From an uncultured Dehalococcoidia bacterium (GTDB lineage: Bacteria > Chloroflexota > Dehalococcoidia > Lucifugimonadales > GCA-2712585), in contig CAYQLZ010000002.1 of the NCBI GenBank assembly GCA_964418665.1, positions 33,615-97,614 on the forward strand: 64,000 nt of DNA, in the 5' to 3' direction. Below are positions 437 to 63,533 of this stretch, one piece after another. Each line of letters starts with the position of its first letter. Position 1 is the stretch's first letter. A program made the translations under genes and the position numbers. The notes under the pieces are model-generated. The model was given only the letters and a program-made list of their open reading frames with translations. It was not told the origin of the DNA and ran no database searches.

Positions 437-1423
437 ATGCCAGCCAATCTAACCCCCCAGTACAAGGAAGCGGAACAGCGTTACCGACAGGCGAGGACGC
501 TGCCGGCGAAGGTCGCGGCGCTGCAGGAGATGATGGCCGTCATCCCGAAGCACAAGGGGACGGACCATCTGAGGGCGGACCTTCGGGCGCGGATGTCTCG
601 GCACATGGAGGAGTTGGAGAAGCCCAAGAGCACCAGCGGCGGGCCACAGCCCTTCAGCATTCGCAAGGAGGGCGCGGGGCAGGTGCTGATAGTCGGCCTG
701 CCCAACGCGGGAAAGTCGGAGGTGTTGAACGCGCTGACCCGCGCGCCCGCCAAGGTGGGGGACTACCCCTTTACGACGCAGATCCCGATGGTTGGGATGC
801 TGCCATACGAAAACATCAAGTTTCAGTTGGTGGACACCCCGGCCCTCAACGCCCTGGACGTACAGACGCGTTTGTTCGGCCTGCTGCGGAACACGGACTT
901 GCTGCTGGTGACGGTGAACCTGGAGTCGGACCCGCTGGAGGAGATGGAGCAGATCAACGCCCTTCTCCACGAGTGGGGTTACTCCCTGCTGGAAGCGGGG
1001 GAGGCCATCGACCTGGAAGGTTCCCGGATTCAGAAGCTGTCCATCATTCTGGCCAACAAGGTCGACGCTGAGGACGGGGAGGAGAAGTTCGCGGCGCTGG
1101 AGAGGGCTTACGGAGAGAAATTCACCATCATCAAGCTTTCGTGCCTGGATGGGACGGGATTGGACGACGTTGGCCAGCAGGTATTCAGGAGCCTGGAGAA
1201 GGTGCGGGTGTACACGAAGAGTCCCAGCGGGGAGCCGGACTTTGAAAAGCCCATTGTCATAGCCAGGGGGAGCACGGCGTCGGACGCGGCCCAGAGGCTG
1301 CATAAGGAGTGGCGGGAGAAGCTGAAATACGCGCTGCTATGGGGCTCGGCTAAGTTTGACGGTCAGAGGGTGGGCCGGGACTACGTGCTGGCCGACGGGG
1401 ACGTGATAGAGCTGCACGGCTAA
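437..1423 (+). CDS. Obg/DRG-type GTP-binding protein with C-terminal TGS domain
   Basis: 328 aa. G1 GLPNAGKS, G3 DTPA, G4 NKVD. The C-terminal VYTK...GRDYVLADGDVIEL segment is TGS-like. Confidence 0.8.
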   Translation: MPANLTPQYKEAEQRYRQARTLPAKVAALQEMMAVIPKHKGTDHLRADLRARMSRHMEELEKPKSTSGGPQPFSIRKEGAGQVLIVGLPNAGKSEVLNALTRAPAKVGDYPFTTQIPMVGMLPYENIKFQLVDTPALNALDVQTRLFGLLRNTDLLLVTVNLESDPLEEMEQINALLHEWGYSLLEAGEAIDLEGSRIQKLSIILANKVDAEDGEEKFAALERAYGEKFTIIKLSCLDGTGLDDVGQQVFRSLEKVRVYTKSPSGEPDFEKPIVIARGSTASDAAQRLHKEWREKLKYALLWGSAKFDGQRVGRDYVLADGDVIELHG

Positions 1424-1427
1424 GGGG

Positions 1428-2258
1428 CTACCGCGCTCCGCCGGGCCGGATTTCGCGCAGATGGACGGGAGCGCCGGTTTCGATTTCGCAGGTGGCAGCG
1501 GCGCCCTCGTTGACCTCGATGGCGTAGCGGGCCGGCGCAGCGGAGGTGTGGACGGGCAGGGAGTCGCCTGTGGCCTCGTGCTCCGGTCGCATGGTCTGGA
1601 CGTCGACGACGGCGAGGTTCTCGTCGACGAAGATTATGTCCAGGGGGATGAGGGTGTTCTTCATCCAGAAGCTGAGGACCTGGGCTTTCTCGAAAACGAA
1701 GAGCATGCCGCGGTCCTGTCCCAGGGATTCGCGCCCCATGAGTCCTCGCGCCCGTTCCTGGGAAGTGTCCGCGACTTCCAGGTAGAAGGTGCAGCCGGCG
1801 ATGGCGGCCGATGCTTCTATCTCCGGTCCCAGGGTGGGTGTGGGAGTGGGGGTTGGCGTAGACGTAGGCGTTGGGGTTGAGGTGGGGGTTGAAACCGGGG
1901 TGGGCGTGGGTGTTGGGGTGGGTGTGGGTCTTGGTGTAGGTGACGCCGTTGGGGTTGGAGGGGTTGATGTGGTGGTGGCAGTGGGGACGGGTGTGGCGCG
2001 AGAGGGCGCCGTTGGCGGGGGCGTTGTGACGGTGGTGGTTGGTGGTGACGTGGGTGTGCGGGCAGGTGTTGGTGACGGGGTGGTGGTTGAGGGGGGAATG
2101 GTGGGGGTGATGGAGGGCGCGGCGGTAGGGGTGGTCGAGTCTGGAGTCGACGTCGCAACATCGTCGGCGGCGCAGGCGACTAGGAGGAGGAGGAGCGCAG
2201 TGAGGGAGGCGAGGGCGATGCGGAGGAGGGTGTGGGATTGGGGCGCGGCTATGGTCAA
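1428..2258 (-). CDS. DUF192-domain lipoprotein with long Pro/Thr-rich linker
   Basis: Signal peptide ends in LLLVAC (lipobox-like), followed by an approximately 105 aa P/T/S linker. The C-terminal GLMGRESL...GMLFVF...FWMKNTLIPLDIIFVD is typical of DUF192. Confidence 0.7.
   Translation of the reverse strand: MTIAAPQSHTLLRIALASLTALLLLLVACAADDVATSTPDSTTPTAAPSITPTIPPSTTTPSPTPARTPTSPPTTTVTTPPPTAPSRATPVPTATTTSTPPTPTASPTPRPTPTPTPTPTPVSTPTSTPTPTSTPTPTPTPTLGPEIEASAAIAGCTFYLEVADTSQERARGLMGRESLGQDRGMLFVFEKAQVLSFWMKNTLIPLDIIFVDENLAVVDVQTMRPEHEATGDSLPVHTSAAPARYAIEVNEGAAATCEIETGAPVHLREIRPGGAR
1833..2153 (-). repeat. low-complexity Pro/Thr-coding tract (imperfect PT/PTPT short tandem repeats) inside the DUF192 gene
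   Basis: Translation reads TPTPTPTPTPVSTPTSTPTPTSTPTPTPTPT. The nucleotide sequence shows ggtgtgggt/ggtgttggg periodicity. Confidence 0.8.
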
Positions 2259-2368
2259 TCACCTATCGTCGGCAAGTTGAGGTTAGATTTCGGTCGAGTA
2301 GAGCATAACTTGTACCACCAACGGGCAGTTTAGACAACGTGGTTTTCGGCCCGGTAGGACTGTTAGCC

Positions 2369-3766
2369 TTAGACGATTGCAAACTGGCGGGGGCGGGCGT
2401 GGCCTCGGGCGACGCGGGGAAGGTATTTGCCCGCTTCCACCAGCAGGGCCAGGCTGTTCAGGTAGTCGTCGTGGCCCTGGGACTCGTCCACGTAGAAGTT
2501 CATCGTTTTGTCCATCCGGTACTGGACCCGCGCTGAGGCGACCTGGCGCCAGAATTCGGCCCACTCGTCTGAGCCGTCGCGGGCGTACATCTTCAGCCGA
2601 CCGGAATTCACCGCCGACATGAGATCGTAGCCGAGGCGGGACTTGCTCTGGGCGCTGTATCGTAGGGACGTGACGGCGCCGGAGCCGAGGGACTTCTCCA
2701 ACACGCTCGCGATGCCTTCGCCCATGCCTGTTGCGTCGACGGCCACGCGGCGGCAGCGCCACACGTTTTTGAGCAGGTCCACCAGCCGGGGATAAAGGGT
2801 GTGGTGGGGGATGCCCTGCCACTCGCGGTGCTCCACCACCCGGATGGCCGGGTCCCGGCTGAAGGAATCGACGGTTGAGAAGTCGAGCTCGCCGATGGTG
2901 AGAACGGTGGAGTCGGGACGCCGTCCAGCGGAAGCGGTTGCGTCAGCATCGTTGAGTCCGCCGCCCACGTCCAGGCCGGCCACGTAGATGCGGTTTCTGG
3001 AGGGCGAGTGGAGGCGGGGGTGTCGACCCTGAAGCTGGCCGGTGTCTCCGGCGGAGAAGAGGCCGCCCCGGCCTGAGACGGGCAGCAACAGGTACTGGGT
3101 GCGGAACAGGGGGTGGTTCTCACCCATTCGACGGCGCTCCGCCTCCACGTAGCTGCGGTAGCGCGGGCTGTGCTGCGCCACCTGTTCCCAGGGAACGGAA
3201 AAGTGTCTCTTGATGCCGTCCTTTCGCTCCAACTCGCGGTTGGATTCGGCCTGTTCCTCCAGCAGGGAGCGGCCATCCCAGGGGGTGCCCCATAGGACCG
3301 TTGTGACGTTGGTGGAGGCGCCCATGGGGCGGAATTCCTTGTGGTACTTGTCCGCAGCGATGTCCTGAGCCTCGTCCATTTCGAGCAGGATGTGGGCGGT
3401 GTTGCCCACCACGTTGGCGTCGGGTTCGGCGCTGAGGAAGAGCTGGCGGGCGTTCCCGAGGGCGATAGCGTTACCCGTTTCCGTGTGCCAATGGCCGGCG
3501 TAGCCGGCGTCGTTCAGCCGTTGCTTGAGCCGGTGCATGCTGATGTGGGCCTGGGGGAGAAAGGTGGGCGCGGCCTTGATCATGTTGCCGCCGTCGAGCA
3601 TATTCATGGTCAGGAGCAGGGTGGCCAGCTGGGCGGAGAGCTCGTTCTTGCCACCCTGCCGGGCGATTTCTACGGTGAATGTGAGGCCCTTTCCGTGCCT
3701 CACGCTCAGCATGACGGCGTGGCCTATCTCCATTTGGTACTTTCTCAGCGGGTACCTGGCGGACAT
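2369..3766 (-). CDS. phage terminase large subunit-like protein (ATPase plus RNaseH-like nuclease)
   Basis: 465 aa. P-loop-like ARQGGKNE, Walker B ILLEMDEAQ, nuclease-type acidic motifs VAGLDVGGG and GHDDYLNSL. The overall layout matches the TerL family. Confidence 0.7.
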   Translation of the reverse strand: MSARYPLRKYQMEIGHAVMLSVRHGKGLTFTVEIARQGGKNELSAQLATLLLTMNMLDGGNMIKAAPTFLPQAHISMHRLKQRLNDAGYAGHWHTETGNAIALGNARQLFLSAEPDANVVGNTAHILLEMDEAQDIAADKYHKEFRPMGASTNVTTVLWGTPWDGRSLLEEQAESNRELERKDGIKRHFSVPWEQVAQHSPRYRSYVEAERRRMGENHPLFRTQYLLLPVSGRGGLFSAGDTGQLQGRHPRLHSPSRNRIYVAGLDVGGGLNDADATASAGRRPDSTVLTIGELDFSTVDSFSRDPAIRVVEHREWQGIPHHTLYPRLVDLLKNVWRCRRVAVDATGMGEGIASVLEKSLGSGAVTSLRYSAQSKSRLGYDLMSAVNSGRLKMYARDGSDEWAEFWRQVASARVQYRMDKTMNFYVDESQGHDDYLNSLALLVEAGKYLPRVARGHARPRQFAIV

Positions 3767-9981: not shown

Positions 9982-10136
9982 GGGGGCACGCTGATGGTTG
10001 GGACGTGGCTGACGCAGGGCGTGTTAGCGGGGAATTGGGGGCGGGACTTGGAGGTTGGGTTGGACTATGTCCGGGAATAGGGGGAGTCTACTCTAATTTT
10101 GGTTCGGTGGGTACCGAGATGATGAGAGGCCAGGCG

Positions 10137-10390: not shown

Positions 10391-11356
10391 CTACCTCAAC
10401 ATAGGCAGCACCTTGTCGACGAAGGTCTGAAACTGTTCCAGCGGGCTGAAGGAGGCGAACCGGACGATAACCGTCGTAGCGCCCGCCGCCTTGTAGGCGA
10501 GAATGGACTTCTCCAACTCTTCCGGAGGTCCCCAGGGCCCCCAGAGGTCTCGCCAGAAGTTCAGGCTGTAATAGAGACGGATCCACCGGTCGGCCTCGCT
10601 TTCGGCCTCGGCGGGGTCCTCGTTCAGGTTGACCGTCATGTAGAAGACACGCTGCATCCGGGACGGGTCGCGGCCATACTCTTCCGTGTATTTCGTAACC
10701 CGCTGTCCGACCTCGGCGAACTCCGACGGCGGCTCCGAGATGGAGATGAAGCCGTCGCCCAGCCGCGCGGCCCGCCGGAACTGTGCGTCTCTTTTGGCTC
10801 GGAGGTGACAGGCGAACAGGACGGGGACTCCGCCTTCCTGAACGGACACGGGCCGCATCTGCAGGTCTTCCAGCTGGAAGTGGCGGCCCTGGTGGGACCC
10901 CAAATGTCCTGTGCCAAGGGCTTTGACAACCTGCATCACCTCCTCCATGCGCCGGCCACGCCTGCGTGGGTCTACGCCGGCGATGTGCCATTCCCGCTGC
11001 TGGGCCTCGTTGAAGGCGCCACCCGCTCCGACGGCCAGCACGGTGCGTCCGCCGGAGATCAGGTCGAGGGTGCCAACCATCTGGGCCAGCAGCACGGGAT
11101 GTCGAAGCGCGGGCAGCAGCACGGCGGTCCCCAACCGGACTCGTTGGGTTTGGGTGGCGATCGCGGCCAGGGTGGTGAGGGGTTCCAATCGCGGCTTGGC
11201 AGTAAGGCTGTCTCCGACCCACACCGAGTCGAGGCCCGCGGCTTCCGCCCGCTGTGCCATCTCCAAGACCAGGTTGGCGTTCTCCGGCTGCTCGTCGCGC
11301 ATCACCAGCCCGCGGGTCGGCAGCAGCACGCCCAGTTTCAGCGGTGATTCCGTCAT
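10391..11356 (-). CDS. LLM-class (luciferase-like) F420-dependent oxidoreductase
   Basis: 321 aa. N-terminus is typical of the family: LGVLLPTRG...AQRAEAAGLDSVWVGDSL...RLGTAVLLPALRHP. Adjacent to cof genes. Confidence 0.8.
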   Translation of the reverse strand: MTESPLKLGVLLPTRGLVMRDEQPENANLVLEMAQRAEAAGLDSVWVGDSLTAKPRLEPLTTLAAIATQTQRVRLGTAVLLPALRHPVLLAQMVGTLDLISGGRTVLAVGAGGAFNEAQQREWHIAGVDPRRRGRRMEEVMQVVKALGTGHLGSHQGRHFQLEDLQMRPVSVQEGGVPVLFACHLRAKRDAQFRRAARLGDGFISISEPPSEFAEVGQRVTKYTEEYGRDPSRMQRVFYMTVNLNEDPAEAESEADRWIRLYYSLNFWRDLWGPWGPPEELEKSILAYKAAGATTVIVRFASFSPLEQFQTFVDKVLPMLR

Positions 11357-11401
11357 GTTGAGGCTCCGTGTTTCGTTTTGTGGTTGTGCATTGGGTCAAT
11401 T

Positions 11402-12052
11402 CTACTCTTGGATGAGTCGGGTGAGAAAGCCAGGATGCTGCGTCTCATATTCCTGTAAGTCTTCGTTTGTGTCCAGGTCCCTGGCGAGGCCGGGACTTTC
11501 GTAGATTGACGGCTGCAGGCCAAGACGGTTCGCCTCCGCCAGGTGGCGAGCAAAGCTCCTCTGCCCAAGCTGCAATCGAAAATCTAGCCGGCGCGGGATG
11601 AAGACGGCGTTGGTGCCGCCGCCCTTTCGCGCGGGGGAGAGAATGACCATCGTGTGAGGGGTTGATTCAGGGGCGGGCCCTGTTGAGGGATTTGAGGTTG
11701 CGATTGAAATAAGGCCCCGCAGGTCTTCGCTCGTGATGAAGGGAAGGTCGCCGGGCAGGAACAGGGGGGCCTTGCCTGCGTCCCAAGCCTGCTCGAAGAC
11801 CAGGCGCAGGCTTTCGTTGATGTTTGGGCCTGCCTCCCGACGCCACTGGGCGCCCTCCTGGCTGGAGATGCCCCGAGTTGATTCGTCGGCGCCCAGCACC
11901 CACACCTCCGCGCAAGCGCTGCGGGCCGTCCGAATGACTCGACGCAGCATGGACGTCACCAGCTGACGACGCCGGTAGCTGTCCAGGTAGGGGGCGAGGC
12001 GCGATTTAGCCTGTGCCAGGGGCTTCATGGGTATGACCGCCACCACCTCCAC
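11402..12052 (-). CDS. cofC: 2-phospho-L-lactate (or PEP) guanylyltransferase
   Basis: 216 aa. VIPMKPLAQAKSRL...PGDLPFI CofC/FbiD pattern. Lies in the cof cluster. Confidence 0.8.
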   Translation of the reverse strand: MEVVAVIPMKPLAQAKSRLAPYLDSYRRRQLVTSMLRRVIRTARSACAEVWVLGADESTRGISSQEGAQWRREAGPNINESLRLVFEQAWDAGKAPLFLPGDLPFITSEDLRGLISIATSNPSTGPAPESTPHTMVILSPARKGGGTNAVFIPRRLDFRLQLGQRSFARHLAEANRLGLQPSIYESPGLARDLDTNEDLQEYETQHPGFLTRLIQE

Positions 12053-12060
12053 CGGCGCGT

Positions 12061-13014
12061 CTACCCGTCGTTCGTGCCGATGATGCGCAGGATGTACCGG
12101 GCCAGAGTTTTCTTATCCCTAGTGGTGTTCATGACGGTGTTGGTGACGTGAGCAGTCATGCCGAGAGAGTTTATTTTGGCGGCCTCATCGACGTCGGCGT
12201 TGTCGAGGATGAAGTGGTCGCAGAGCCCAGCGTATTTCCGGGCCACGCCTGCGCTGGAGACGGGATGGCCAAGTTCGCGCATCATTTTGGCGGCGGGACC
12301 GCGAATGGCCGCACCGCCGACGATGGGGCTGACCACCGCGCGAGGGCCGACGAAGCGACAAATGCGCTCTCGAACGTCCCCGACGGCCAGGATGGGGTCT
12401 ATGCTCAGTAAGGGGTTCGAGGGACAGAAGACGATAGCGCGGGCGTTGTTCAGGGCATCGTCGAAGGTGGGAGAAGGTTGGGCATCGTCAGCGCCTTCGA
12501 AGCGGACCGACTTCGCTTCAGGTTCGCACCGAAGGCGGACGAAATAGTCCTGGAAGGCCAGAACGCCCTCTGAGGTCTCTATCTTCGTCCGAACGGGGCC
12601 GTCGGCCATAGGCGCTACCGTGTGTGCTATGTCGACGCGCCGGCAGAGTTCTTGCGTCACGGCGGATAGCGACCGTCCTTCCCGGAGTAGCTGAGTGCGG
12701 CGGATATGGGTGGCGAGGTCACGGTCGCCGAGGTTGAACCAGGTGGGGACGCCGTAGCCGGAGAGCATCTCCAGGGCTTGAAATGTCTCGCCGGAGAGTC
12801 CCCAGCCGCGCTCGGAGTCGGCGAGGCCGCTCAGGGTGTACATCACGGTGTCGAGGTCCGGGGAAACGTGGAGGCCGTGGAACTCCTCGTCGTCGCCGGT
12901 GTTCACGACGATAACGAGGTCTTCCGTGGGCAGCACGCGGGCCAAACCGAGGGCCAGCTTTGCGCCACCCACGCCTCCCGCCAAGGCCAGCACGGGCCCC
13001 GGTTGCGTTCCCAT
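12061..13014 (-). CDS. cofD: 2-phospho-L-lactate transferase
   Basis: 317 aa. LAGGVGGAKL, VNTGDD, DTVMYTL motifs. Confidence 0.9.
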   Translation of the reverse strand: MGTQPGPVLALAGGVGGAKLALGLARVLPTEDLVIVVNTGDDEEFHGLHVSPDLDTVMYTLSGLADSERGWGLSGETFQALEMLSGYGVPTWFNLGDRDLATHIRRTQLLREGRSLSAVTQELCRRVDIAHTVAPMADGPVRTKIETSEGVLAFQDYFVRLRCEPEAKSVRFEGADDAQPSPTFDDALNNARAIVFCPSNPLLSIDPILAVGDVRERICRFVGPRAVVSPIVGGAAIRGPAAKMMRELGHPVSSAGVARKYAGLCDHFILDNADVDEAAKINSLGMTAHVTNTVMNTTRDKKTLARYILRIIGTNDG

Positions 13015-13020
13015 GAGACG

Positions 13021-14340
13021 CTAAAGCGGGGTGGGGGACGTGGCTTTGTCCCGGCGTTTGGGATGGATGAAGCGGAAGCCCTCCATCTGGACCATGCGCT
13101 GGTAGGAACCGAACCGCTCTTCCAGGTTACCCTCCAGCAGATCCAGGGGGTCTTGAGGGTCGTCGTCATCGTCGAAGATGCGCTTGATCTTGTAGGTGGT
13201 GTAGCGCTCGGCGGGTATGCGGCCGACATCGCGGATTGTCCGCCGAAACTCGGAGGGTCGCACCAGCTGTCCGTGCTGGGCGCCGGCCGCGGTGGAGATG
13301 CTCTCGTTGATGAGGCTGCCGCCGAGGTCGTTGACGCCGGCCAGCAGGAGAAGCTGGGACAGCCGCAGCCCCTCCTTGACCCAGGACGCCTGGATGTTTG
13401 GGATCCAGTTGTTGAGCATGATGCGGGCGATGGCGTGGACCTTCAGCACTTCGGAGCCTGTCGCCCCACTGCGGAGGCCGTCCACAGTCTGCTGAAAGTG
13501 CATAGGCGCTTCCGCGTGAACGAAGCTGAGGGGCACGAACTCGGTGATGCCTCCGCTCTGCTTCTGTACGTCCCGGATCAGGTCTATGTGGCGGGCCTTC
13601 TGCTCGTTGGTCTCCACGTGGCCGAACATGATGGTGGAGGTGGTGGGGATGCCGAGGGAATGGGCGGTGGTGATGACCTCGATCCAGCTCTCCGTGGTGA
13701 TCCTGCCGGGGGCAATGCGGTCGCGAAGACCCTGGTCCAGTATCTCGGCGGACGTCCCAGGAAGGCTGCCCACCCCGGCGTCCTTCAGGGACTGAAGGTA
13801 CTCCCGGATACTGCACCGGGAGCGGATGGAACCGTAGAGGACTTCCTCGGGAGAGAAGCCGTGAATGTGGATGTCCGGCAGTTCTTCCTTTATGGCCTCG
13901 CAGATGCGGATATACAGGTCGCCCTCCATCTGGGGAGGGAGGCCCGCCTGGATGCAGACCTCCGTAGCGCCCAGGTCCCACGCCTCTTTCGCCCGCCTGA
14001 TCACCTCGGCAATGGGGAGGAAGTAGCCCTCCTCCTGGCGGTGGTCGCGGCTGAAGGCGCAGAAGCCGCAGCGCTTGATGCAGACGTTTGTGAAGTTTAT
14101 GTTGCGGTTGACGACGTAGGTGACCAGGTCGCCGACGGTACGACGTCGGAGTTCGTCCGCCACCATCTGGATGGCGTTCAACTCGAGCCCTGAAGCCTCG
14201 AAGAGAGTCACCGCCTGCTCGACGGTTATGTCCCTACCCTCCAGGGCGTCGGTAAGGGCGCGGGCTACGTTGGGTTCGACGGCGCGGACAAGGGCTTCCA
14301 GCGAACGTGGGGATGGAGTCTCAGCCTGGCGGATTGACAT
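13021..14340 (-). CDS. cofH: FO synthase subunit 2 (radical SAM)
   Basis: Radical-SAM CIKRCGFCAF. The start is set at ATG 14338-14340 (MSIRQ...). The alternative at 14418 would overlap cofG by 98 nt. Confidence 0.85.
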   Translation of the reverse strand: MSIRQAETPSPRSLEALVRAVEPNVARALTDALEGRDITVEQAVTLFEASGLELNAIQMVADELRRRTVGDLVTYVVNRNINFTNVCIKRCGFCAFSRDHRQEEGYFLPIAEVIRRAKEAWDLGATEVCIQAGLPPQMEGDLYIRICEAIKEELPDIHIHGFSPEEVLYGSIRSRCSIREYLQSLKDAGVGSLPGTSAEILDQGLRDRIAPGRITTESWIEVITTAHSLGIPTTSTIMFGHVETNEQKARHIDLIRDVQKQSGGITEFVPLSFVHAEAPMHFQQTVDGLRSGATGSEVLKVHAIARIMLNNWIPNIQASWVKEGLRLSQLLLLAGVNDLGGSLINESISTAAGAQHGQLVRPSEFRRTIRDVGRIPAERYTTYKIKRIFDDDDDPQDPLDLLEGNLEERFGSYQRMVQMEGFRFIHPKRRDKATSPTPL

Positions 14341-15613
14341 ATCTTTCGACACCCCCCTTAACGTATCCGTCGGCGTCTGCCATATCCAGAAGGCGCTCCC
14401 GCACGGCCGGGTCGGCAAAGTCGTCCCGCTCCATGAAGAACTCCGGGTAGATGGGCAGACGTGGCTTCAGTTGGAAGCCCATGGTCTCGGTGCGCCGGCG
14501 CAGCTGAGAAATCTGCGGCCAGGGCGCTTCCGGGTTAACATAGTCGATGGTGAGGGGCGAAACCCCGCCCCAGTCGTTGATGCCCGCGTTGAGGAACAGC
14601 GGGTAGTCGGAATGGTTCAGGTTTGGCGGCACCTGCAGGTTGACGGAGGGGCCCAGGATGAGGCGGGACGCCGCCACCGTCCAGAGCAGGTCCTCCGTGG
14701 CGGCGTCGGGGTGGTTACCCATGGCCGTGTCCACCTTGGCGCGGAAATTCTGCACTATCACTTCCTGCACGTGACCGTATCGCCGATGGGAGTCTCTTAT
14801 GGCCAGCAGCGTTTCGATGCGCTCCTTGCGGGTCTCGCCGATGCCGATGAGGATGCCGGTGGTGAAGGGGACCTTCAGCTGGCCCGCCAGGTCCAGGGTC
14901 TTCAGACGTACGGAGGGACGCTTGCTGGGGGCCAGGTGGTGGGGGCCGCCTTCGAGGCAGAGCCTCTCGCTGAGGATCTCCAGCATTACCCCCATCGAGG
15001 CATTCACGGGCCGCAGGGCCGCCAACTCGCGGCGGCTCATGATGCCCGGGTTGGCGTGGGGCAGCATGGACGTGTGGGCCAGGGTTTCGGCGGAAACGTG
15101 GGTCAGGTAGGAAAGCGTCGACTGGAATCCGGCGGCTTTCAGCCACTCCCGGGCCTCCGGGTAGCGCTGCTCCGGGTGCTCGCCCAGGGTGAAGAGAGCC
15201 TCGGTGCAGCCCAACTTCTGCCCGGCTCGCGCCACTGCGAGCGCCTCCTCCGTAGTCATGTACATCGTTGCCGCCTCTGATGGCGATTGGCGGAAGGTGC
15301 AGTAGCCGCAGAAGTCCCGACAGAGGCGGGTCAGGGGGATGAACACCTTGGGCGAGAAGGTGACCGTTCGTCCTTTGCCTCTATCTCGAGTAATCGAGGC
15401 GGCCCGGCACAGTCCCTGCAGGTCCCGATGGGAGCCGTGGACGAGCGATGCGGCCTCGTCTGCAGAAAGCTCCCACTGTTGCTCCACGGCGCGATGGAGG
15501 AGAGGTTTAAGCCACTCGCTCACGCCGTCCAGGTAGTCGTCGTTAGTCTCCAGGACCGTCGGACGTTGAAGGACTTGCGTTGCCGAAGGGGAGGGAATCT
15601 GCGTTTGAACCAT
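14321..15613 (-). CDS. cofG: FO synthase subunit 1 (radical SAM)
   Basis: 430 aa. CRDFCGYCTF cluster motif. CofG-like throughout. Overlaps cofH by 20 nt. Confidence 0.85.
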   Translation of the reverse strand: MVQTQIPSPSATQVLQRPTVLETNDDYLDGVSEWLKPLLHRAVEQQWELSADEAASLVHGSHRDLQGLCRAASITRDRGKGRTVTFSPKVFIPLTRLCRDFCGYCTFRQSPSEAATMYMTTEEALAVARAGQKLGCTEALFTLGEHPEQRYPEAREWLKAAGFQSTLSYLTHVSAETLAHTSMLPHANPGIMSRRELAALRPVNASMGVMLEILSERLCLEGGPHHLAPSKRPSVRLKTLDLAGQLKVPFTTGILIGIGETRKERIETLLAIRDSHRRYGHVQEVIVQNFRAKVDTAMGNHPDAATEDLLWTVAASRLILGPSVNLQVPPNLNHSDYPLFLNAGINDWGGVSPLTIDYVNPEAPWPQISQLRRRTETMGFQLKPRLPIYPEFFMERDDFADPAVRERLLDMADADGYVKGGVERYVNPPG

Positions 15614-24576: not shown

Positions 24577-25092
24577 ATGGTCAAGATCCTCGGCATAGAC
24601 CCCGGCACGCTTCACCTGGGCTACGGCCTGATAGAGGAGTCCGATGGTGACCTCCAGGCGCTGGACTACGGGGCTCTGCACTTCAAGTCGGCGCTGCCGG
24701 TGGAGGAGCGGCTATACCAGGTTCACTCCCACCTGATGAACATGATAGGCATGTTCCGCCCGGACGAGCTTGCCATCGAGAGTCCCTTCATGGGCCAGGG
24801 GCAAAGCCGCTTCGTCGGTCCCGCCTTCGCGGTGGGACAGGCCCAGGCGGCGGTGCTGATTGCTTCCGTGTCCCAGGGCGTACCCGTCTTCCGATACCCT
24901 CCGGCGCAGATAAAGTCGTCCGTGGCCGACCACGGAGCTGCCTCCAAGGAACAGGTGCTGACCATGGTGAGCATCACCCTGAATCTCAACGAAATACCCC
25001 TGAGCTACGATGCCTCAGACGCGCTGGCCATCGCCCTGTGCCACCTGCGGCAGCGGGAACTCTCGGATATGGCGGCCCTTTCGGAATGGTGA
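24577..25092 (+). CDS. ruvC: crossover junction endodeoxyribonuclease RuvC
   Basis: ILGIDPGTLHLGYGLIE... with catalytic acidic residues. 171 aa. Confidence 0.9.
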   Translation: MVKILGIDPGTLHLGYGLIEESDGDLQALDYGALHFKSALPVEERLYQVHSHLMNMIGMFRPDELAIESPFMGQGQSRFVGPAFAVGQAQAAVLIASVSQGVPVFRYPPAQIKSSVADHGAASKEQVLTMVSITLNLNEIPLSYDASDALAIALCHLRQRELSDMAALSEW

Positions 25093-30272: not shown

Positions 30273-31274
30273 CTAGGCAGGTTCAGCGCTGGCTGCCGCT
30301 GGTCTCTCAAGCTCCCTGAGAATATCCCTTGTCTTCTCCCCCATGTGGTCGCCAACGGCCGCGATTTTCCTCATCCTGCCCTCAGCAATCCGAAGAGCCA
30401 CTGTAGTTGGTACCGCAACTGGTCCGATTGGAGTTGCCATTAGAGCAGTGCCAACTGTGGAATAGGCACCGGCTCTGACCACACGCCCCCTACCCCGCGT
30501 GATAGCGTTCTGAAGGGATGAGCGTCCCATCAGGACCATGCCGCCTTCCGTCGCTGCGATGACAACCGCTGAAGCTAAGGGTATCGCGTCAAGGCCGAAT
30601 TCGGCGCTCTTGTCGGCGAGGTCTTTCAAAGCTCCTTCGCTCAATTCACTCAATTGTCCATCCGTCTCTTGTTCCAGGTGCTCATTGGTTATGCTGCTGG
30701 CTGTCACATTATCCCGCAGGGATGCTCGGGCATCTAATTCATCCGGAACGACAACCCGAACGGTTGGATATTTTTCTAAGGCTCTATTGACGTAAGACAT
30801 CGACTCTGTAGCCTTAAGCTGGAGGTCTTCAACGATCTCCCCGTTGCCATCTTCGATTCTCAAATCCCAGCCTGGCTGATTTGCATCCTTTGCAATTCGG
30901 GCCACTTGTCCGGACTCTAACTGGATGTCTCCCACACTTTCACCCGCATTTAACTTTTTGCAAACGAGGACTTCGAAGTATTTGCCTTTCACTCCGTTGG
31001 CCAATCCCTCTTGACGCTCCTCGGTGGCTCCCCTTAGTGAATCCAAGCTAACTCTTCGATACTGCAGTCGAAAAGCTTCCAGAAATTGTGGATTGGCCTC
31101 CGGCTCCAGTCCCAGGCCTATAACGTCGTCAATGGATACGTCAGTGGCAATCGCGGCCAATTCCAGCACTTCGCGCTCTTGCCGTCGACGGTATTTTTCC
31201 GCGAATTTCGCCAGTTCTCCCCTGCTTTGAACGGGATATGTCGCTGCCAGGTTCTTCAGTTTATCGTAGGCCAT
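30273..31274 (-). CDS. hypothetical protein: possible PD-(D/E)xK-like nuclease core plus a Gly/Ala-rich hydrophobic C-terminal region
   Basis: 333 aa. GKYFEVLVCKKL...PGWDLRIEDGNGEIVEDLQLKAT, then IPLASAVVIAATEGGMVLMG and GAYSTVGTALMATPIGPVAVPTTVAL. GC looks lower than in the flanks. Confidence 0.55.
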   Translation of the reverse strand: MAYDKLKNLAATYPVQSRGELAKFAEKYRRRQEREVLELAAIATDVSIDDVIGLGLEPEANPQFLEAFRLQYRRVSLDSLRGATEERQEGLANGVKGKYFEVLVCKKLNAGESVGDIQLESGQVARIAKDANQPGWDLRIEDGNGEIVEDLQLKATESMSYVNRALEKYPTVRVVVPDELDARASLRDNVTASSITNEHLEQETDGQLSELSEGALKDLADKSAEFGLDAIPLASAVVIAATEGGMVLMGRSSLQNAITRGRGRVVRAGAYSTVGTALMATPIGPVAVPTTVALRIAEGRMRKIAAVGDHMGEKTRDILRELERPAAASAEPA

Positions 31275-31310
31275 GACTTCTTCTACCCCTTAACATGAGA
31301 TTTGGCCTGC

Positions 31311-31787
31311 TCATATCCATCGCCACTGCCAGAACATCCACCAGGGACTCCTAGTCTGTCGTTCCTGACGGGCGAGGCTTGTCTGCACTTGCGCAAGTGT
31401 CTCCTCCATGTCGGACTGTGCTTGCTGAATCTGCGCCAGTTGCTGCTCTAAAGCGTCTTGGTTCTGTTGCGCTTGCGCCAGGGCTTCCTTCATTGCGCCT
31501 TGCTCCACCTGCACCTCATGTAGCGACAACTTGATGCTTGTCTGCTGTACCCTCAATTCGGTAAGCGAGTCTCTGACTTTTTGCTGGTCATTATGAACCC
31601 CGATTACCGCAGTGGAAACAGTGTCGGTAAAGTCTTCAAGCTGCTCCTGAAGCTTCTTGCCGGTAACCATGTCGGCCGTGCCACCGACCCTTTCTTTGGT
31701 GGAGTCCAATAGCTTTCGAAACCCTCCAACCAACCCTCCCGATTCTTGTGATTCTCCTTCTTTAGTCCCTTCATCTTGTCGGTTCAA
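31311..31787 (-). CDS. hypothetical Gln-rich coiled-coil protein with Trp-rich C-terminus
   Basis: 158 aa. Heptad-like LAQAQQNQDALEQQLAQIQQAQSDMEETLAQVQ. Ends in SPWWMFWQWRWI. The start is a TTG and is uncertain. Confidence 0.55.
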   Translation of the reverse strand: MNRQDEGTKEGESQESGGLVGGFRKLLDSTKERVGGTADMVTGKKLQEQLEDFTDTVSTAVIGVHNDQQKVRDSLTELRVQQTSIKLSLHEVQVEQGAMKEALAQAQQNQDALEQQLAQIQQAQSDMEETLAQVQTSLARQERQTRSPWWMFWQWRWI

Positions 31788-44094: not shown

Positions 44095-44565
44095 TTGCAA
44101 AGGCTACTGGGGAGACAGACGCCACTGGAACAGAATAATTCGGAAAGGGAGTCGATCTGGAGTGTACCTAGAGCAACAAAAGCTTGGTATTTTGGGATCT
44201 TTTCTCTCCAGTTCTTGGTTGGAGCCGCTGTGCTGCTCGCGAGGACAGCTTCTGAATCCTATAACTTATCCGAGTTCGTCATTAGGTCGACTGGCTACCT
44301 GGCGCCATTGGCTGTCGCAGATGCCGCGTTGTCGTTAGTTATTGTTGAGGTATGGGGGATAATTGGTGCTACAATTAGTTTGGTCAGGAGGTTGCTGATG
44401 GTACTCGGCGAGTACATTAGGAAGAAGTTCAATTTAGACGAAAAGAAAGATGAGTCTGGTCACGCTAAGCCGGTCCCTCAGGATGCCCATCGCGTTGACC
44501 GTCCTCCTAGGGCATTTCGCAGTACTCCCCCGGGCAAAGTAAGGATTGAGGATAGCGAAGAATAG
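44095..44565 (+). CDS. hypothetical membrane protein (2-3 predicted TM helices)
   Basis: 156 aa, TTG start, in a lower-GC cassette. WYFGIFSLQFLVGAAVLLA and LAPLAVADAALSLVIVEVWGIIGATISLV. Confidence 0.4.
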   Translation: MQRLLGRQTPLEQNNSERESIWSVPRATKAWYFGIFSLQFLVGAAVLLARTASESYNLSEFVIRSTGYLAPLAVADAALSLVIVEVWGIIGATISLVRRLLMVLGEYIRKKFNLDEKKDESGHAKPVPQDAHRVDRPPRAFRSTPPGKVRIEDSEE

Positions 44566-50527: not shown

Positions 50528-50750
50528 CCAGCATGGGTAGGCCACGCAGCAGGTGGCTGCCACCATCCCGTTATTGCGCTGTTGGTGGATCTACTGAAAG
50601 GTCTCCATAAGCAAGCTCATTTTTCTCTAAACCTTTCGGAGCGTTAGCCTTGCGGCTCTCCCGCTCCCACTGATACCACTTACGACGCGCAACCCGGTAT
50701 GTGGTAAGGTGGCGGTCAACGGGGGCAACCTTCACCCAGGAGCGATAATC

Positions 50751-51383
50751 ATGATTGACAACGGGCCCAAGCTCAACGACAAGCCGGTTCGCGCCATAGT
50801 CTGGTCTGACTACATCTGACCCTGGTGCTACATCGGGGCGGCCAGCCTCGAAAAGCTCGCCACTGAATACAACATCACTATTGAACGACGCCCGTTTCTC
50901 CTTCGCCCCGACATCGGGCCCGAGGGCATCGCCCGCGAGCCCCGCCCGGGCGAAAATGGTGACCGTCTAGGCGAACCCGTCGGAAGCCGGGCCGAGGCTG
51001 AGGGTCTCGTCATGCGCCGGCCCTCCCTCACCCCCTTTACAATGCCCTCCCTGGAAGCCACCGAATTCGCCCGCGAGGTCGGCATGGACCAGGCCTTCTT
51101 CGACCAGACTATGAAGGCCTATTGGGAAGAAGGCCTCAACCTCGGCGACATGGCCGTCCTGGAGTCCCTGGCCAGCAGATCCGGCCTCGACTGGACAGTC
51201 CTGCAGCCACGACTCGAATCCGGCCACTATCGCGAGCAGGTGTTGGCGCAGCACCGCGAGGCCATCAGTTTGGGCATCCGGGGAATACCAGCCTTCCTCA
51301 TCGGAAACATGCTCTTCACCGGCACCCAGCCCTACGAGGTCTTCAAGAGTGTCATCGACCGTGTTCTGAGCGAACCGGCCTGA
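50751..51383 (+). CDS. DsbA/FrnE-family thiol:disulfide oxidoreductase with in-frame TGA at the first CxxC position (candidate selenoprotein, U-P-W-C)
   Basis: AGGAG-8 nt-ATG 50751. The frame has a single interruption, TGA 50817-50819, in VWSDYI-TGA-PWCYIG. It is otherwise open to the stop at 51381-51383. The ORF track reports only 51012-51383. Confidence 0.6.
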
Positions 51384-51427: not shown

Positions 51428-52513
51428 TTGTCCACTGACCAGCAGACCCGTCGACGCTCCACATCTACCGGTGTCACCCTCCACAACCCGGAGAAAGCCT
51501 GCCCAGGCTACGTGCTGTACACTCCCATGTACGGCATCGGCCACGTCGACCTCATAGACCTCAAGGGCCACGTGGTCCATCGCTGGGAGATGCCCCATCC
51601 CCCCGGCCTATATGGCTACTTCCTTCCCAATGGCAACCTCTTCTACCTTGGTAAAACCAAAGACCACACCTGGGACCGCTTCCCTTCATGGAATCGTTTC
51701 AAGGGGGGTGTGATAATGGAGGTCGACTGGGAGGGCAACCTGGTCTGGGAACACCGCGACATAGATCACCATCACGACGCCCGCCGCACCGAGTCCGGCG
51801 GCGCCATCTACCTCACCGTGGAGAGAGTCCCCGGCGCCATCGCCTCCCAGGTCAAAGGCGGTCTGCCTAATGAAGGCGGTATGTGGTCCGACACCATCGT
51901 AGAAGTCGACGCCTCCGGCAACCGCATCTGGGAGTGGCGATCTCACGAACACCTCGACACCGAAACTGACGTCATCACCTACTGCGATTTCCGCGACGAG
52001 TGGGCCCACGGTAACACCATCGTCCCTCTCTCCGGTGACTGCGTCATGGTCAGCTTCCGCAACATCTCCACCGTCGGCATCATAGACAAGAATTCCGGCC
52101 GGTGGACCTGGAAGATTGACTACGACACCCTGGCCCAGCAGCACGACCCGAGTATGCTCGACAACGGCAACGTCCTCATCTTCGACAACGGCGCCCACCG
52201 CAAGAACCATCCTCTGCCCCACTCACGCGTCATAGAAGTATCCACCTCCACCGGCCAAATCGTCTGGTCCTACACCGATACTCCTCTTTACAACTTCTTC
52301 AGCCCCTACATCTCCGGCGCCCGCCGCTTACCTAACGGCAATACACTCATCACGGAGGGAATGTTCGGACGCATTTTTCAGGTCACCACTGAAGGGGAGG
52401 TCGTCTGGGAGTACATCAATCCCCATTTCTTCGAAGCCCCTGACGGCGCCATCACCAACGCTGTCTTCCGATCCACCCATTACCTCCCCGAGCAAGTGCC
52501 GCACCTCCGTTGA
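51428..52513 (+). CDS. arylsulfotransferase (ASST)-family beta-propeller protein
   Basis: 361 aa. Repeated WE/W-x-W strand motifs, HHHDARR, HGNTIVPL, QHDPSMLDNGNVLIFDNG. Confidence 0.7.
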   Translation: MSTDQQTRRRSTSTGVTLHNPEKACPGYVLYTPMYGIGHVDLIDLKGHVVHRWEMPHPPGLYGYFLPNGNLFYLGKTKDHTWDRFPSWNRFKGGVIMEVDWEGNLVWEHRDIDHHHDARRTESGGAIYLTVERVPGAIASQVKGGLPNEGGMWSDTIVEVDASGNRIWEWRSHEHLDTETDVITYCDFRDEWAHGNTIVPLSGDCVMVSFRNISTVGIIDKNSGRWTWKIDYDTLAQQHDPSMLDNGNVLIFDNGAHRKNHPLPHSRVIEVSTSTGQIVWSYTDTPLYNFFSPYISGARRLPNGNTLITEGMFGRIFQVTTEGEVVWEYINPHFFEAPDGAITNAVFRSTHYLPEQVPHLR

Positions 52514-61630: not shown

Positions 61631-61692
61631 GGTCCAACTCGCGGTTAACCAAAGAGCGGGTACCGACTTGGGAAAGGGCCGGCAGCGTGAAG

Positions 61693-61899
61693 CTAGGCCT
61701 TGAGGCCAAACCGACGTCGGAGCCGCTCAACGCGACCCTCCGTGTCCACGATGCGCTGCTCGCCCGTGTAGAAGGGGTGGCATTTGTTGCAAAGCTCCAC
61801 CCTCAGCGTCCGCTTGGTGGCACCGGTGGTGAACACGTTCCCGCAGGAGCAGGTGACCACCGTGTCTCGGTAGAAGGTGGGGTGAATATCTTTCTTCAT
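61693..61899 (-). CDS. rpmE: 50S ribosomal protein L31
   Basis: [26 protein letters not shown]...[10 protein letters not shown]. Confidence 0.9.
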
Positions 61900-61908
61900 C
61901 TGTTTGCC

Positions 61909-62172
61909 CTATGCAACTTCGAGGGGATAGACGCTGGCTCGGCGCTTGCCCTTGGAGGCCCATTCGAACTTGACGGCGCCGTCGATGAGGGAGAAGAGGG
62001 TGTGGTCCTTGCCCATTCCCACGTTGCGACCCGGCATAATCTTGGTGCCGCGCTGGCGCATGATGATGTTGCCGGCGATGACCCTTTCGCCGCCGAACTT
62101 CTTGACGCCCAAACGCTGGCCCGGGCTGTTCCGGCCGTTGCGGGAGCTTCCTCCCGCCTTCTTATGAGCCAT
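61909..62172 (-). CDS. rpmA: 50S ribosomal protein L27
   Basis: [28 protein letters not shown]. Confidence 0.95.
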
Positions 62173-62500
62173 CGGTATCCTCCTGGTACTGGGCTAATTC
62201 GACAATCTGCAGTCTCGTGTAGGGCTGACGGTGCCCCCGCATCCTTCGATAGCGAGTCTTAGACTTGTACTTGAACACCCGGATCTTCTTGTCCCGGTAC
62301 TGCTCCTGCACGTGGGCAATGACCTTTACGCCGTTGAGGAGGGGCCTGCCGATGCTGACTTCGCCGTCTTTGCTGAAGGCGAGCACCTCGTCAAGCTCAA
62401 TCTCCGCGCCGGGTTCCACGGCCAGCTTGTCCACGTCTATGACGTCGCCGGGCGAGACCCGGTACTGTTTGCCGCCAGTTTTGAAAATTGCGTATTCCAT
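62162..62500 (-). CDS. rplU: 50S ribosomal protein L21
   Basis: [26 protein letters not shown]. Confidence 0.95.
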
Positions 62501-62509
62501 AACCTATAA

Positions 62510-62539
62510 ATTTTATGTTGGGCAGCTTGCGGGTGTCAA
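62510..62539 (-). promoter_or_regulatory. promoter of rplU-rpmA-rpmE (TTGACA-18-TAAAAT)
   Basis: On the minus strand, TAAAAT is at 62510-62515 and TTGACA at 62534-62539. The ATG lies 9 nt after the -10, and no SD is present. Confidence 0.45.
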
Positions 62540-62627
62540 TGGCATGGGGGATGGATGTGCAAATGGTCAATGATATAGTCTGTGGGTAAGGGTGTCGCTC
62601 ATCTGGATCGGATAGACCATTCCCTGG

Positions 62628-63533
62628 ATGCCATGCTACGATTCAATCGCAAACAAACGAAAGAAATTGGAGGATGTCTTGGGCGTGAGGATAGTAAGCT
62701 GGAACATCGCGAAGATGCACGAGCCGTGGCGGCAGCTGCTGAACATGGACGTGGACGTTGCATTGCTTCAAGAGGCGGGAATGCCCCCTGAAGATGTTGC
62801 CGGCAAAGTGGACACCGGCCCGGCTGAACATTGGGACTCCCACCATTGGAATTCCCGCTGGTACGAAGGGCGTTTCAAGAATCTGCTAGAACGATGGCCA
62901 AAAGTGGTAAAACTGTCGGACCGCGTCGAAATCGAATGGTTCAAGCAGGTGAGTCCCATTAGCCAGGTGAACCAGGACGAGCTGGCCGTTAGCGGAATAG
63001 GCACCATCGCCGCTGCGCGGGTCCTCTCTCGTGAAGTCTCACCCTTCATAGTTGTGTCGATGTATGCTCGCTGGTTGTCTCCACACCCCTCCGTCGACAG
63101 CAACTGGATTATTTCTGATGCTTCCGCCCATCGCATAATCTCCGACCTTTCAATGTTTATTGGAAGGGAGAATGGTCACCGCATCCTGGCTTCTGGAGAC
63201 CTGAACCTTCTATATGGAACTGCTGAGGGCAGAAATGAATATTGGGCCCAGCGTTACGCAACGGTATTCGATCGAATGGAGACGATAGGGCTCCCACTCG
63301 TTGGCCCCCGCGCTCCACATGGACAGCAGGCAGACCCGTGGCCAAGTGAATTACCATCCGACAGCAGGAATGTTCCAACGTTCCGCTCAATACGCAATCC
63401 ACCGACTAGGCAATTGGACTTCGTCTTCGCTTCCAAGGAGATGGTGGATAACGTGCGAGTCAAAGCACTTAACGGACCAGAAGAATGGGGACCCAGCGAC
63501 CACTGTAGAGTTCTGATAGAAGTGATTGGATAG
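62628..63533 (+). CDS. endonuclease/exonuclease/phosphatase (EEP) family protein
   Basis: RIVSWNI...DVALLQE...SGDLN...GPSDHCRV. An alternative GTG start at 62685 has GGAGG upstream. GC looks lower than the flanks. Confidence 0.75.
   Translation: MPCYDSIANKRKKLEDVLGVRIVSWNIAKMHEPWRQLLNMDVDVALLQEAGMPPEDVAGKVDTGPAEHWDSHHWNSRWYEGRFKNLLERWPKVVKLSDRVEIEWFKQVSPISQVNQDELAVSGIGTIAAARVLSREVSPFIVVSMYARWLSPHPSVDSNWIISDASAHRIISDLSMFIGRENGHRILASGDLNLLYGTAEGRNEYWAQRYATVFDRMETIGLPLVGPRAPHGQQADPWPSELPSDSRNVPTFRSIRNPPTRQLDFVFASKEMVDNVRVKALNGPEEWGPSDHCRVLIEVIG

Follow-up and report, generated by a model that had tools for sequence, protein, structure and literature searches.

A probable selenocysteine codon at the catalytic position of a FrnE/DsbA-like oxidoreductase gene from an uncultured Dehalococcoidia bacterium

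Introduction

How should an in-frame TGA be read when it falls on the codon at which a thiol oxidoreductase would carry its catalytic cysteine? The question is raised by a gene at positions 50751-51383 of a 64-kb stretch of DNA from an uncultured Dehalococcoidia bacterium; this whole stretch, as analysed here, is referred to below as the window. The original prediction, made from the nucleotide letters alone, took the gene for a DsbA/FrnE-like oxidoreductase and its TGA for a candidate selenocysteine (Sec, U) codon replacing the first Cys of a CPWC motif. Here we weigh that reading against mutation, sequencing error, true termination and other forms of read-through.

Selenoproteins of this general kind have a published record. 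A "DsbA-like protein" (COG2761, a FrnE-type cluster of orthologous groups) with a UxxC motif was among the new selenoprotein families reported in 2005 from the Sargasso Sea, with nine sequences (Zhang, Fomenko & Gladyshev; PMC1088965), which bears out the statement in the original prediction that such proteins had been found in marine metagenomes. The DsbA-like selenoprotein family was counted in 41 organisms in 2016 (Peng et al.; PMC5029168), and a 2026 review carries the entry "DsbA-like protein form 1, PF01323, UxxC" (PMC13188914). Dehalococcoidia are likewise documented as selenoprotein-rich (PMC13326102).

Results

An open frame interrupted only at the catalytic codon

The frame that opens at ATG 50751 comprises 211 codons including the stop, and the TGA at codon 23 (50817-50819) is its sole interruption, with CCC TGG TGC following directly. 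Start codon, the AGGAG 8 nt upstream of it, frame length and translation were all reproduced as first described (Table 1). An in-frame GTG at 50709 would extend the N-terminus by 14 residues (MAVNGGNLHPGAII; window 50709-50750), and a similar extension is also present in the nearest relative, L001. Of the two, we consider ATG 50751, which a Shine-Dalgarno sequence accompanies, the more likely start codon.

We considered a reassigned genetic code and ruled it out from stop codon usage in the window. Among 31 high-scoring open reading frames (ORFs), 18 end in TAG, 10 in TGA and three in TAA; ruvC (24577-25092) is one of the TGA enders, and the terminal stop of the candidate selenoprotein gene itself is TGA. 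TGA therefore serves as an ordinary stop in 10 of the 31 confident window genes, and the code is not reassigned, as had been supposed at the outset.

A FrnE-type thioredoxin fold with the TGA at the nucleophile

With U23 entered as C, a profile search matched the translation to PF01323 (DSBA) at E=1.2e-28, with 100.7 bits against a cut-off of 25.6 and residues 17-202 covering profile positions 4-190 of 191. The closest solved structure by sequence is FrnE from Deinococcus radiodurans (5CNW, E=4.6e-19, aa 8-207), and Streptomyces SCO1869 is also among the closest. In the FrnE alignment, WSDYI[U]PWCYIG of the window protein lies opposite WSDIACPWCYIG, and the TGA codon coincides with Cys22 of 22-CPWC-25. 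Profile match and alignment agree with the proposal that the TGA occupies the catalytic Cys column of CPWC; the U-P-W-C of the window protein is the redox motif right after strand beta-1, with Sec rather than Cys in first position.

As a structural model we used the Cys homologue P0041, which is full length and 49% identical to the window protein; its AlphaFold model has a mean predicted local distance difference test (pLDDT) score of 94.7. In this model, strand 13-20 leads to CPWC, whose first residue, Cys24, stands where helix 25-40 starts; helices inserted between the thioredoxin halves (residues 78-175) follow, as in DsbA-type folds. The best Foldseek matches of the model are FrnE structures, with a template-modelling (TM) score of 0.77; other cytoplasmic DsbA-like proteins come next. 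As is general for the thioredoxin fold, Pro180 of the window protein is presumed to be in cis.

In the window protein and the orthologues examined, only a short, hydrophilic segment precedes strand beta-1 (top 15-residue Kyte-Doolittle mean, ~1.07). By this crude hydropathy measure, which is not a dedicated signal-peptide predictor, neither the window protein nor these orthologues have a hydrophobic N-terminal segment; the window protein is therefore predicted from its sequence to be probably cytoplasmic. It ends at residue 210 with a single Cys, and the C-terminal CxxxxC tail of the D. radiodurans FrnE type is absent. This tail is also missing in the FrnE proteins of S. roseofulvus and D. maricopensis (PMC8945050), and its lack therefore does not exclude membership of the FrnE subfamily. 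Overall, the gene product is a FrnE-subfamily member of the DsbA-like thioredoxin-fold oxidoreductases.

Two other assignments were rejected. Identity with periplasmic DsbA was set aside in view of the missing signal peptide and the closer similarity to cytoplasmic FrnE. Membership of NF041057, the Rcas_1661 family thioredoxin-like (seleno)lipoprotein, was dismissed because the match scored 52 bits against a cut-off of 190, covered residues 99-204 on the C-terminal part of the profile only, and came with no lipoprotein signal.

The TGA is conserved across 80 species

A search of 5.8 billion proteins returned 144 homologues, of which the best 120 were examined. Nearly all of these (116 of 120) are gene calls that start at assorted methionines 3' of the active-site motif, and the other four (P0041, P0049, P0063 and P0104) are full length with Cys at the Sec column. 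Gene callers had been expected to report only the 3' piece, and they do so both here and for nearly all of these homologues. We also scanned one genome per GTDB species, which yielded 80 loci from 80 species genomes, all of them Dehalococcoidia, SAR202 or Chloroflexota metagenome-assembled genomes (MAGs), at 46-86% identity and with tblastn matches that span the N-terminal region. The Dehalococcoidia/SAR202 clade as sampled is almost wholly of the Sec form (80 of 80 loci in the genome scan, 116 of 120 matches in the protein search).

Whether orthologues carry TGC or TGA at this codon has a uniform answer: TGA stands at codon 23 in all 80 loci. It is flanked by conserved residues, VW[YS]DY[IV] before and PWCY[IV]G after, and the resolving Cys, which had been noted as kept in the window gene (TGC 50826-50828), is invariant as TGC or TGT throughout. 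The only loss of the second-position Pro among the 80 species is in L077, where TGA-GCC-TGG-TGC (10043-10054) encodes U-A-W-C. Across the 12 codons 5' of the TGA, entropy is 1.27 at position 3, versus 0.58 at position 1 and 0.41 at position 2; variation is concentrated at third positions, and this segment is therefore translated in frame. These sequence patterns indicate that the frame is under purifying selection on either side of the TGA, in keeping with the earlier argument that the gene is no old pseudogene.

The letters themselves are borne out by four Logan assemblies (runs SRR22586461 and SRR8304783-5), which match the window with 100% identity along the 633 nt of the gene, TGA included. 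Judged from the sequences, with 80 of 80 loci and four independent assemblies in agreement, conservation of the TGA column is far beyond chance expectation. Additional stops or frameshifts in relatives, named beforehand as a warning sign, were limited to one locus, L006 (~10067-10085; MAG contig CBDBED010000008.1), where a 1-nt insertion 13 nt 3' of the TGA shifts the frame (TACAATCGG vs TACATCGG). The insertion reflects an error of long-read assembly or else marks a genuine pseudogene confined to that genome.

A covarying hairpin lies immediately downstream

Bacterial Sec codons are decoded with the help of a Sec insertion sequence (SECIS), and a candidate bacterial SECIS (bSECIS) was sought in alignment A3, the 60 nt from the TGA onward, which is gap-free across the 80 sequences. 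RNAalifold predicts a single hairpin, with columns 17-23 paired with 29-35 around a loop at 24-28. A 9-bp version of this conserved stem is paired in 89.6% of cells; shifting its 3' arm by 1-3 columns lowers the figure to 23-47%. Compensatory changes occur at four pairs (16-36, 18-34, 21-31 and 22-30), and none of 500 shuffles reached the observed covariation score. L022 and L027 have GC in place of CG at pair 18-34, by way of a synonymous Val change and an Asp to His substitution; L027 and L047 have UA in place of CG at pair 22-30, where both substitutions are synonymous. Two adjacent pairs are G-C in the clade of the window and C-G in most clades, despite a different peptide (IGAASLE vs [IV]GLERVD), and third-position entropy is lowered in the stem codons. 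The 80-species alignment thereby offers a clean, covariation-supported example of a bacterial SECIS within coding sequence.

In the window, the corresponding hairpin (50833-50851) has a folding energy of -11.2 kcal/mol (z=-2.8), and none of 200 shuffles was as stable. It combines a 7-bp stem with a 5-nt loop, GGCCA, that starts with GG and lies 20 nt from the UGA. The published bSECIS model has a loop of 3-9 nt, an upper stem of 4-16 bp, a G in the first two loop positions, 16-37 nt from UGA to loop and a minimum free energy (MFE) of <= -7.5 kcal/mol (PMC13188914), and the window hairpin falls within all four of its constraints. In a strict contiguous-stem version of this test, 64 of the 80 orthologues pass. 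The candidate window element shares with fdhF-type elements of E. coli its place within the coding sequence (CDS) right 3' of the UGA, a small apical loop starting with G and the 16-37 nt spacing (PMC13188914), and differs in having no sequence similarity to them; nothing in the window matched an Rfam family at gathering thresholds.

A stable stem-loop near the TGA had been foreseen, and the one found is a third hairpin, different from both of those drawn in the original prediction. Of those two, the stem-loop at 50822-50845 is paired in 50% of cells, has no covariation and does no better than shuffled or slid controls, and that at 50837-50861 (37% paired) likewise fails to exceed controls, although it appears in the single-sequence MFE fold of the window. 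It is because of this last point that comparative data were needed to place the SECIS. We also rejected a hairpin at 50820-50838, which belongs to the window's own MFE fold; it is pairable in 75% of cells with no covariation beyond shuffles and, judging from the size of the ribosome footprint, would lie inside that footprint and be unfolded with the UGA in the A site.

Cys forms of the gene retain the hairpin to different degrees. In P0063 (L085 3001-3660), which has TGC at the Sec position, a full hairpin, UCGGUCUG-UCA-CGGAUCGA, occupies the homologous place with no G in its loop, and L086, another Cys homologue, keeps three of the seven stem pairs. SECIS remnants are on record for Cys forms that arose from Sec forms (PMC1794560), and the L085 hairpin may be such a fossil, left by a Sec-to-Cys change.

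Discussion

A genuine selenoprotein gene is the favoured reading

Taken together, the position of the TGA, its conservation and the hairpin lead us to assign a probability of about 0.92 to 50751-51383 being a genuine FrnE/DsbA-type selenoprotein gene, in which U23 replaces the nucleophilic Cys of CPWC; we infer that Sec is actually inserted at UGA 50817-50819. Several points weigh against this assignment. Neither the 64-kb window nor 1.6 Mb of related loci contains selA, selB, selD or a gene for the selenocysteine tRNA (tRNA-Sec). ARAGORN found no tRNA-Sec in the window and 80 loci, and no tRNA gene at all in the window; motif scans of the window and related loci for SelA, SelB and SelD gave nothing real; and tblastn with E. 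coli SelA and SelD sequences produced one weak match, in L032, whose N-terminal sequence was judged ThiL-like rather than SelD. The Sec machinery of the source genome is assumed from the listing in BSepDB of the genome behind orthologue locus L047. As for the RNA, 16 of the 80 orthologues fail the strict contiguous-stem test, mostly through a 1-nt bulge, and the isolated 60-nt window RNA has an MFE fold of two other hairpins at -18.8 kcal/mol. Moreover, the Cys homologue L085 keeps a complete hairpin, and the conserved peptide Y-[IV]-G-L-x-R-[IV]-[DE] may therefore account for part of the stem. At the level of function, redox direction and substrates would be those suggested by analogy with D. 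radiodurans FrnE.

The L047 genome (OY761986.2, isolate 10f4566d-...) is credited with 46 selenoprotein genes in BSepDB, among the ten richest bacteria, and a second Dehalococcoidia genome there with 49 (PMC13326102); to be entered in BSepDB, a species must have two or more Sec-pathway genes. A codon-usage screen for further TGA read-through genes in the window returned only the selenoprotein gene and two ordinary adjacent gene pairs. In a motif-only screen, and in one that compared the 80 loci all against all, off-frame shadows of conserved genes dominated the output.

Alternative explanations for the TGA

The TGA could in principle be an artefact or a lesion. TGA and TGC are one base apart, and a sequencing or assembly error at a true TGC or TGT codon would give the observed reading; four independent assemblies from four runs carry the same letters across the gene, however, and the codon is shared by 80 other genomes from different projects and technologies, which makes error a negligible prospect and the least probable alternative. 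A nonsense mutation in a Cys-type FrnE gene whose frame is still undecayed fares little better. A fresh mutation of this kind would look like one in-frame stop, and the relative L006 also has its 1-nt insertion just 3' of the motif, but the same codon is TGA in all 80 species, which have diverged to 46% identity, codons on both sides of it evolve as under purifying selection with no further stops, and the L006 indel is one case in a long-read MAG. The 46-86% divergence also excludes the loci being copies of one recent contaminant. A pseudogene is accordingly exceedingly improbable.

If the TGA is real and maintained, it might still be a true stop. The products would then be a 22-residue peptide and a C-terminal fragment with a start of its own, at ATG 51012 or elsewhere within the frame. 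Gene callers do find the ORF at 51012-51383. Such a fragment, though, would miss strand beta-1, the active site and helix alpha-1 of the thioredoxin fold; the internal starts vary by species (query positions 28-88), with none conserved; and the segment between TGA and internal start is conserved as coding sequence, so that we hold real termination to be highly improbable. Read-through with Trp, Cys or Gly, by near-cognate or suppressor decoding or stimulated by the hairpin without SelB, is the strongest of the four alternatives and still very unlikely. No Sec machinery was seen in the window, and stem-loops downstream of stop codons can in general stimulate read-through. Against it stand the exact placement of the UGA on the redox-active Cys position of a UxxC/CxxC pair, the fit of the hairpin to a SelB-type bSECIS in the size of its loop, the GG that opens the loop and the spacing, the documented use of Sec by relatives of this lineage and the role of TGA as a normal stop in the window. 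Such placement of UGA within a UxxC/CxxC pair marks almost every bacterial selenoprotein (PMC1088965).

Proposed mechanism and relation to known systems

If the gene is a selenoprotein gene as favoured above, a ribosome reaching UGA 50817-50819 would find the hairpin, which starts 13 nt downstream, at its mRNA entrance. The hairpin, through its apical loop GGCCA, would recruit SelB-GTP-Sec-tRNA(Sec), and Sec would be inserted without termination. In the folded protein, the selenolate of U23, at the N-terminus of helix alpha-1, would attack a substrate disulfide to form a selenenylsulfide intermediate, which C26 would resolve to give an intramolecular Se-S bond. Because the window protein lacks the C-terminal CxxxxC tail of FrnE, we propose that an external reductant, probably the thioredoxin reductase/thioredoxin system, re-reduces this bond. 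D. radiodurans FrnE has disulfide isomerase activity and reduces insulin and, given NADPH and thioredoxin reductase, 5,5'-dithiobis-(2-nitrobenzoic acid) (DTNB); it also confers protection from cadmium, diamide and oxidative stress (PMC8945050).

That protein (DR_0659; 5CNW, 5CO3, 5COH, 5XWH), a cytoplasmic disulfide reductase/isomerase, has the same x-P-W-C after strand beta-1 and, like the window protein, no signal peptide and a DsbA-type helical insertion. It differs in having Cys rather than Sec, in its identity to the window protein of only ~30%, and in a tail, 239-CxxxxC-244, that helps regenerate the active site (PMC8945050). The periplasmic oxidases DsbA and DsbL share the thioredoxin fold with a helical insertion; in contrast, the window protein has no signal peptide, no DsbB/DsbI partner was seen, and sequence and fold are much closer to FrnE. 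From the published DsbA-like selenoprotein family we find no difference in kind: the Pfam domain is the same, Sec takes the place of the first Cys in a UxxC motif, Cys homologues exist, and a SECIS-like hairpin with a G in its small apical loop likewise lies just 3' of the UGA. Assignment of the window gene to 'form 1' is based on domain and motif (published representatives AACY01178397 and NIP15863.1).

A wider reading that joins these strands is possible but doubtful as a whole. A FrnE-like protein would have become fixed as a lineage-wide selenoprotein in Dehalococcoidia/SAR202, with the Cys forms as rare secondary reversions, some of them with a fossil SECIS, with the SECIS locked into the peptide Y-[IV]-G-L-E-R-V-D, and with the adjacent arylsulfotransferase as a dedicated client in the sub-clade of the window. 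Were it true, such a lineage-wide fixed selenoprotein would provide a marker of, and an entry point to, selenium dependence in an abundant uncultured lineage of ocean and soil.

Consequences for annotation

Family, motif and the selenoprotein richness of Dehalococcoidia are already published, and the window locus is a further, mis-annotated member. Knowledge of selenoproteins is left unchanged, and the chief consequence concerns annotation: in public protein sets, the gene and nearly all of its relatives figure as "DsbA family protein" entries that are cut short at the N-terminus and lack the active site. NCBIfam release 20 holds no model for this family, and its only match is the sub-threshold, partial one to NF041057, which represents a different selenoprotein family of the Chloroflexota, DsbA-like in its C-terminal half. 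The gap may explain the truncated public annotation, for example that of MFQ5860553.1 (185 aa, 'DsbA family protein'). Read correctly, the locus adds one selenoprotein to the genome and implies dependence on selenium and on the SelA/SelB/SelD machinery.

Table 1. Positions of the selenoprotein gene, its elements and the adjacent gene in the window
Feature	Position	Strand	Remarks
Shine-Dalgarno-like AGGAG	50738..50742	+	8 nt 5' of ATG 50751; read from sequence
Complete FrnE/DsbA-like selenoprotein CDS (favoured reading)	50751..51383	+	210 aa, U at position 23, stop TGA 51381-51383
In-frame TGA, proposed Sec codon U23	50817..50819	+	site of the CPWC nucleophilic Cys
TGC, resolving Cys C26 of U-P-W-C	50826..50828	+	sole Cys in the protein
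Candidate bacterial SECIS hairpin UCGGGGC-GGCCA-GCCUCGA	50833..50851	+	arms 50833-50839 / 50845-50851, apical loop 50840-50844
3' fragment, called instead of the full gene	51012..51383	+	123 aa; mechanical ORF list; database protein P0011
CCA, Pro180 of G-I-P, presumed cis-Pro loop facing the active site	51288..51290	+	invariant column in homologue alignments
Arylsulfotransferase (ASST)	51428-52513	+	PF05935 E=1.7e-24, PF14269; 45 nt 3' of the selenoprotein gene

Genomic neighbourhood

Outside the nearest relatives, L001-L007, and the Logan contigs, the ASST gene does not adjoin the selenoprotein gene, and no operon partner is conserved across the family. The arrangement recalls the pairing of DsbL and AssT in the assT-dsbL-dsbI cluster of E. 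coli, and by this analogy the ASST could be a client of the selenoprotein oxidoreductase.

Pfam annotation of ~50 window ORFs describes an ordinary chromosomal region with housekeeping genes only, among them those for F420 biosynthesis, ruvABC, uvrB, ftsK, RNase J, methylmalonyl-CoA mutase, citrate synthase, acetyl-CoA synthetase and histidine biosynthesis. Several sizeable ORFs have no Pfam match at E<=1e-5, at 1420-2262 (-), 2369-3766 (-), 30273-31787 (-), 44095-44565 (+) and 61687-63533 (+). The one at 2369-3766 encodes 465 aa and has a strong coding score. The coenzyme F420 biosynthesis cluster lies at 10391-15613 (-) and comprises CofC, CofD and two radical-SAM CofG/CofH-like genes; it adjoins the gene for a luciferase-like, probably F420-dependent, monooxygenase.

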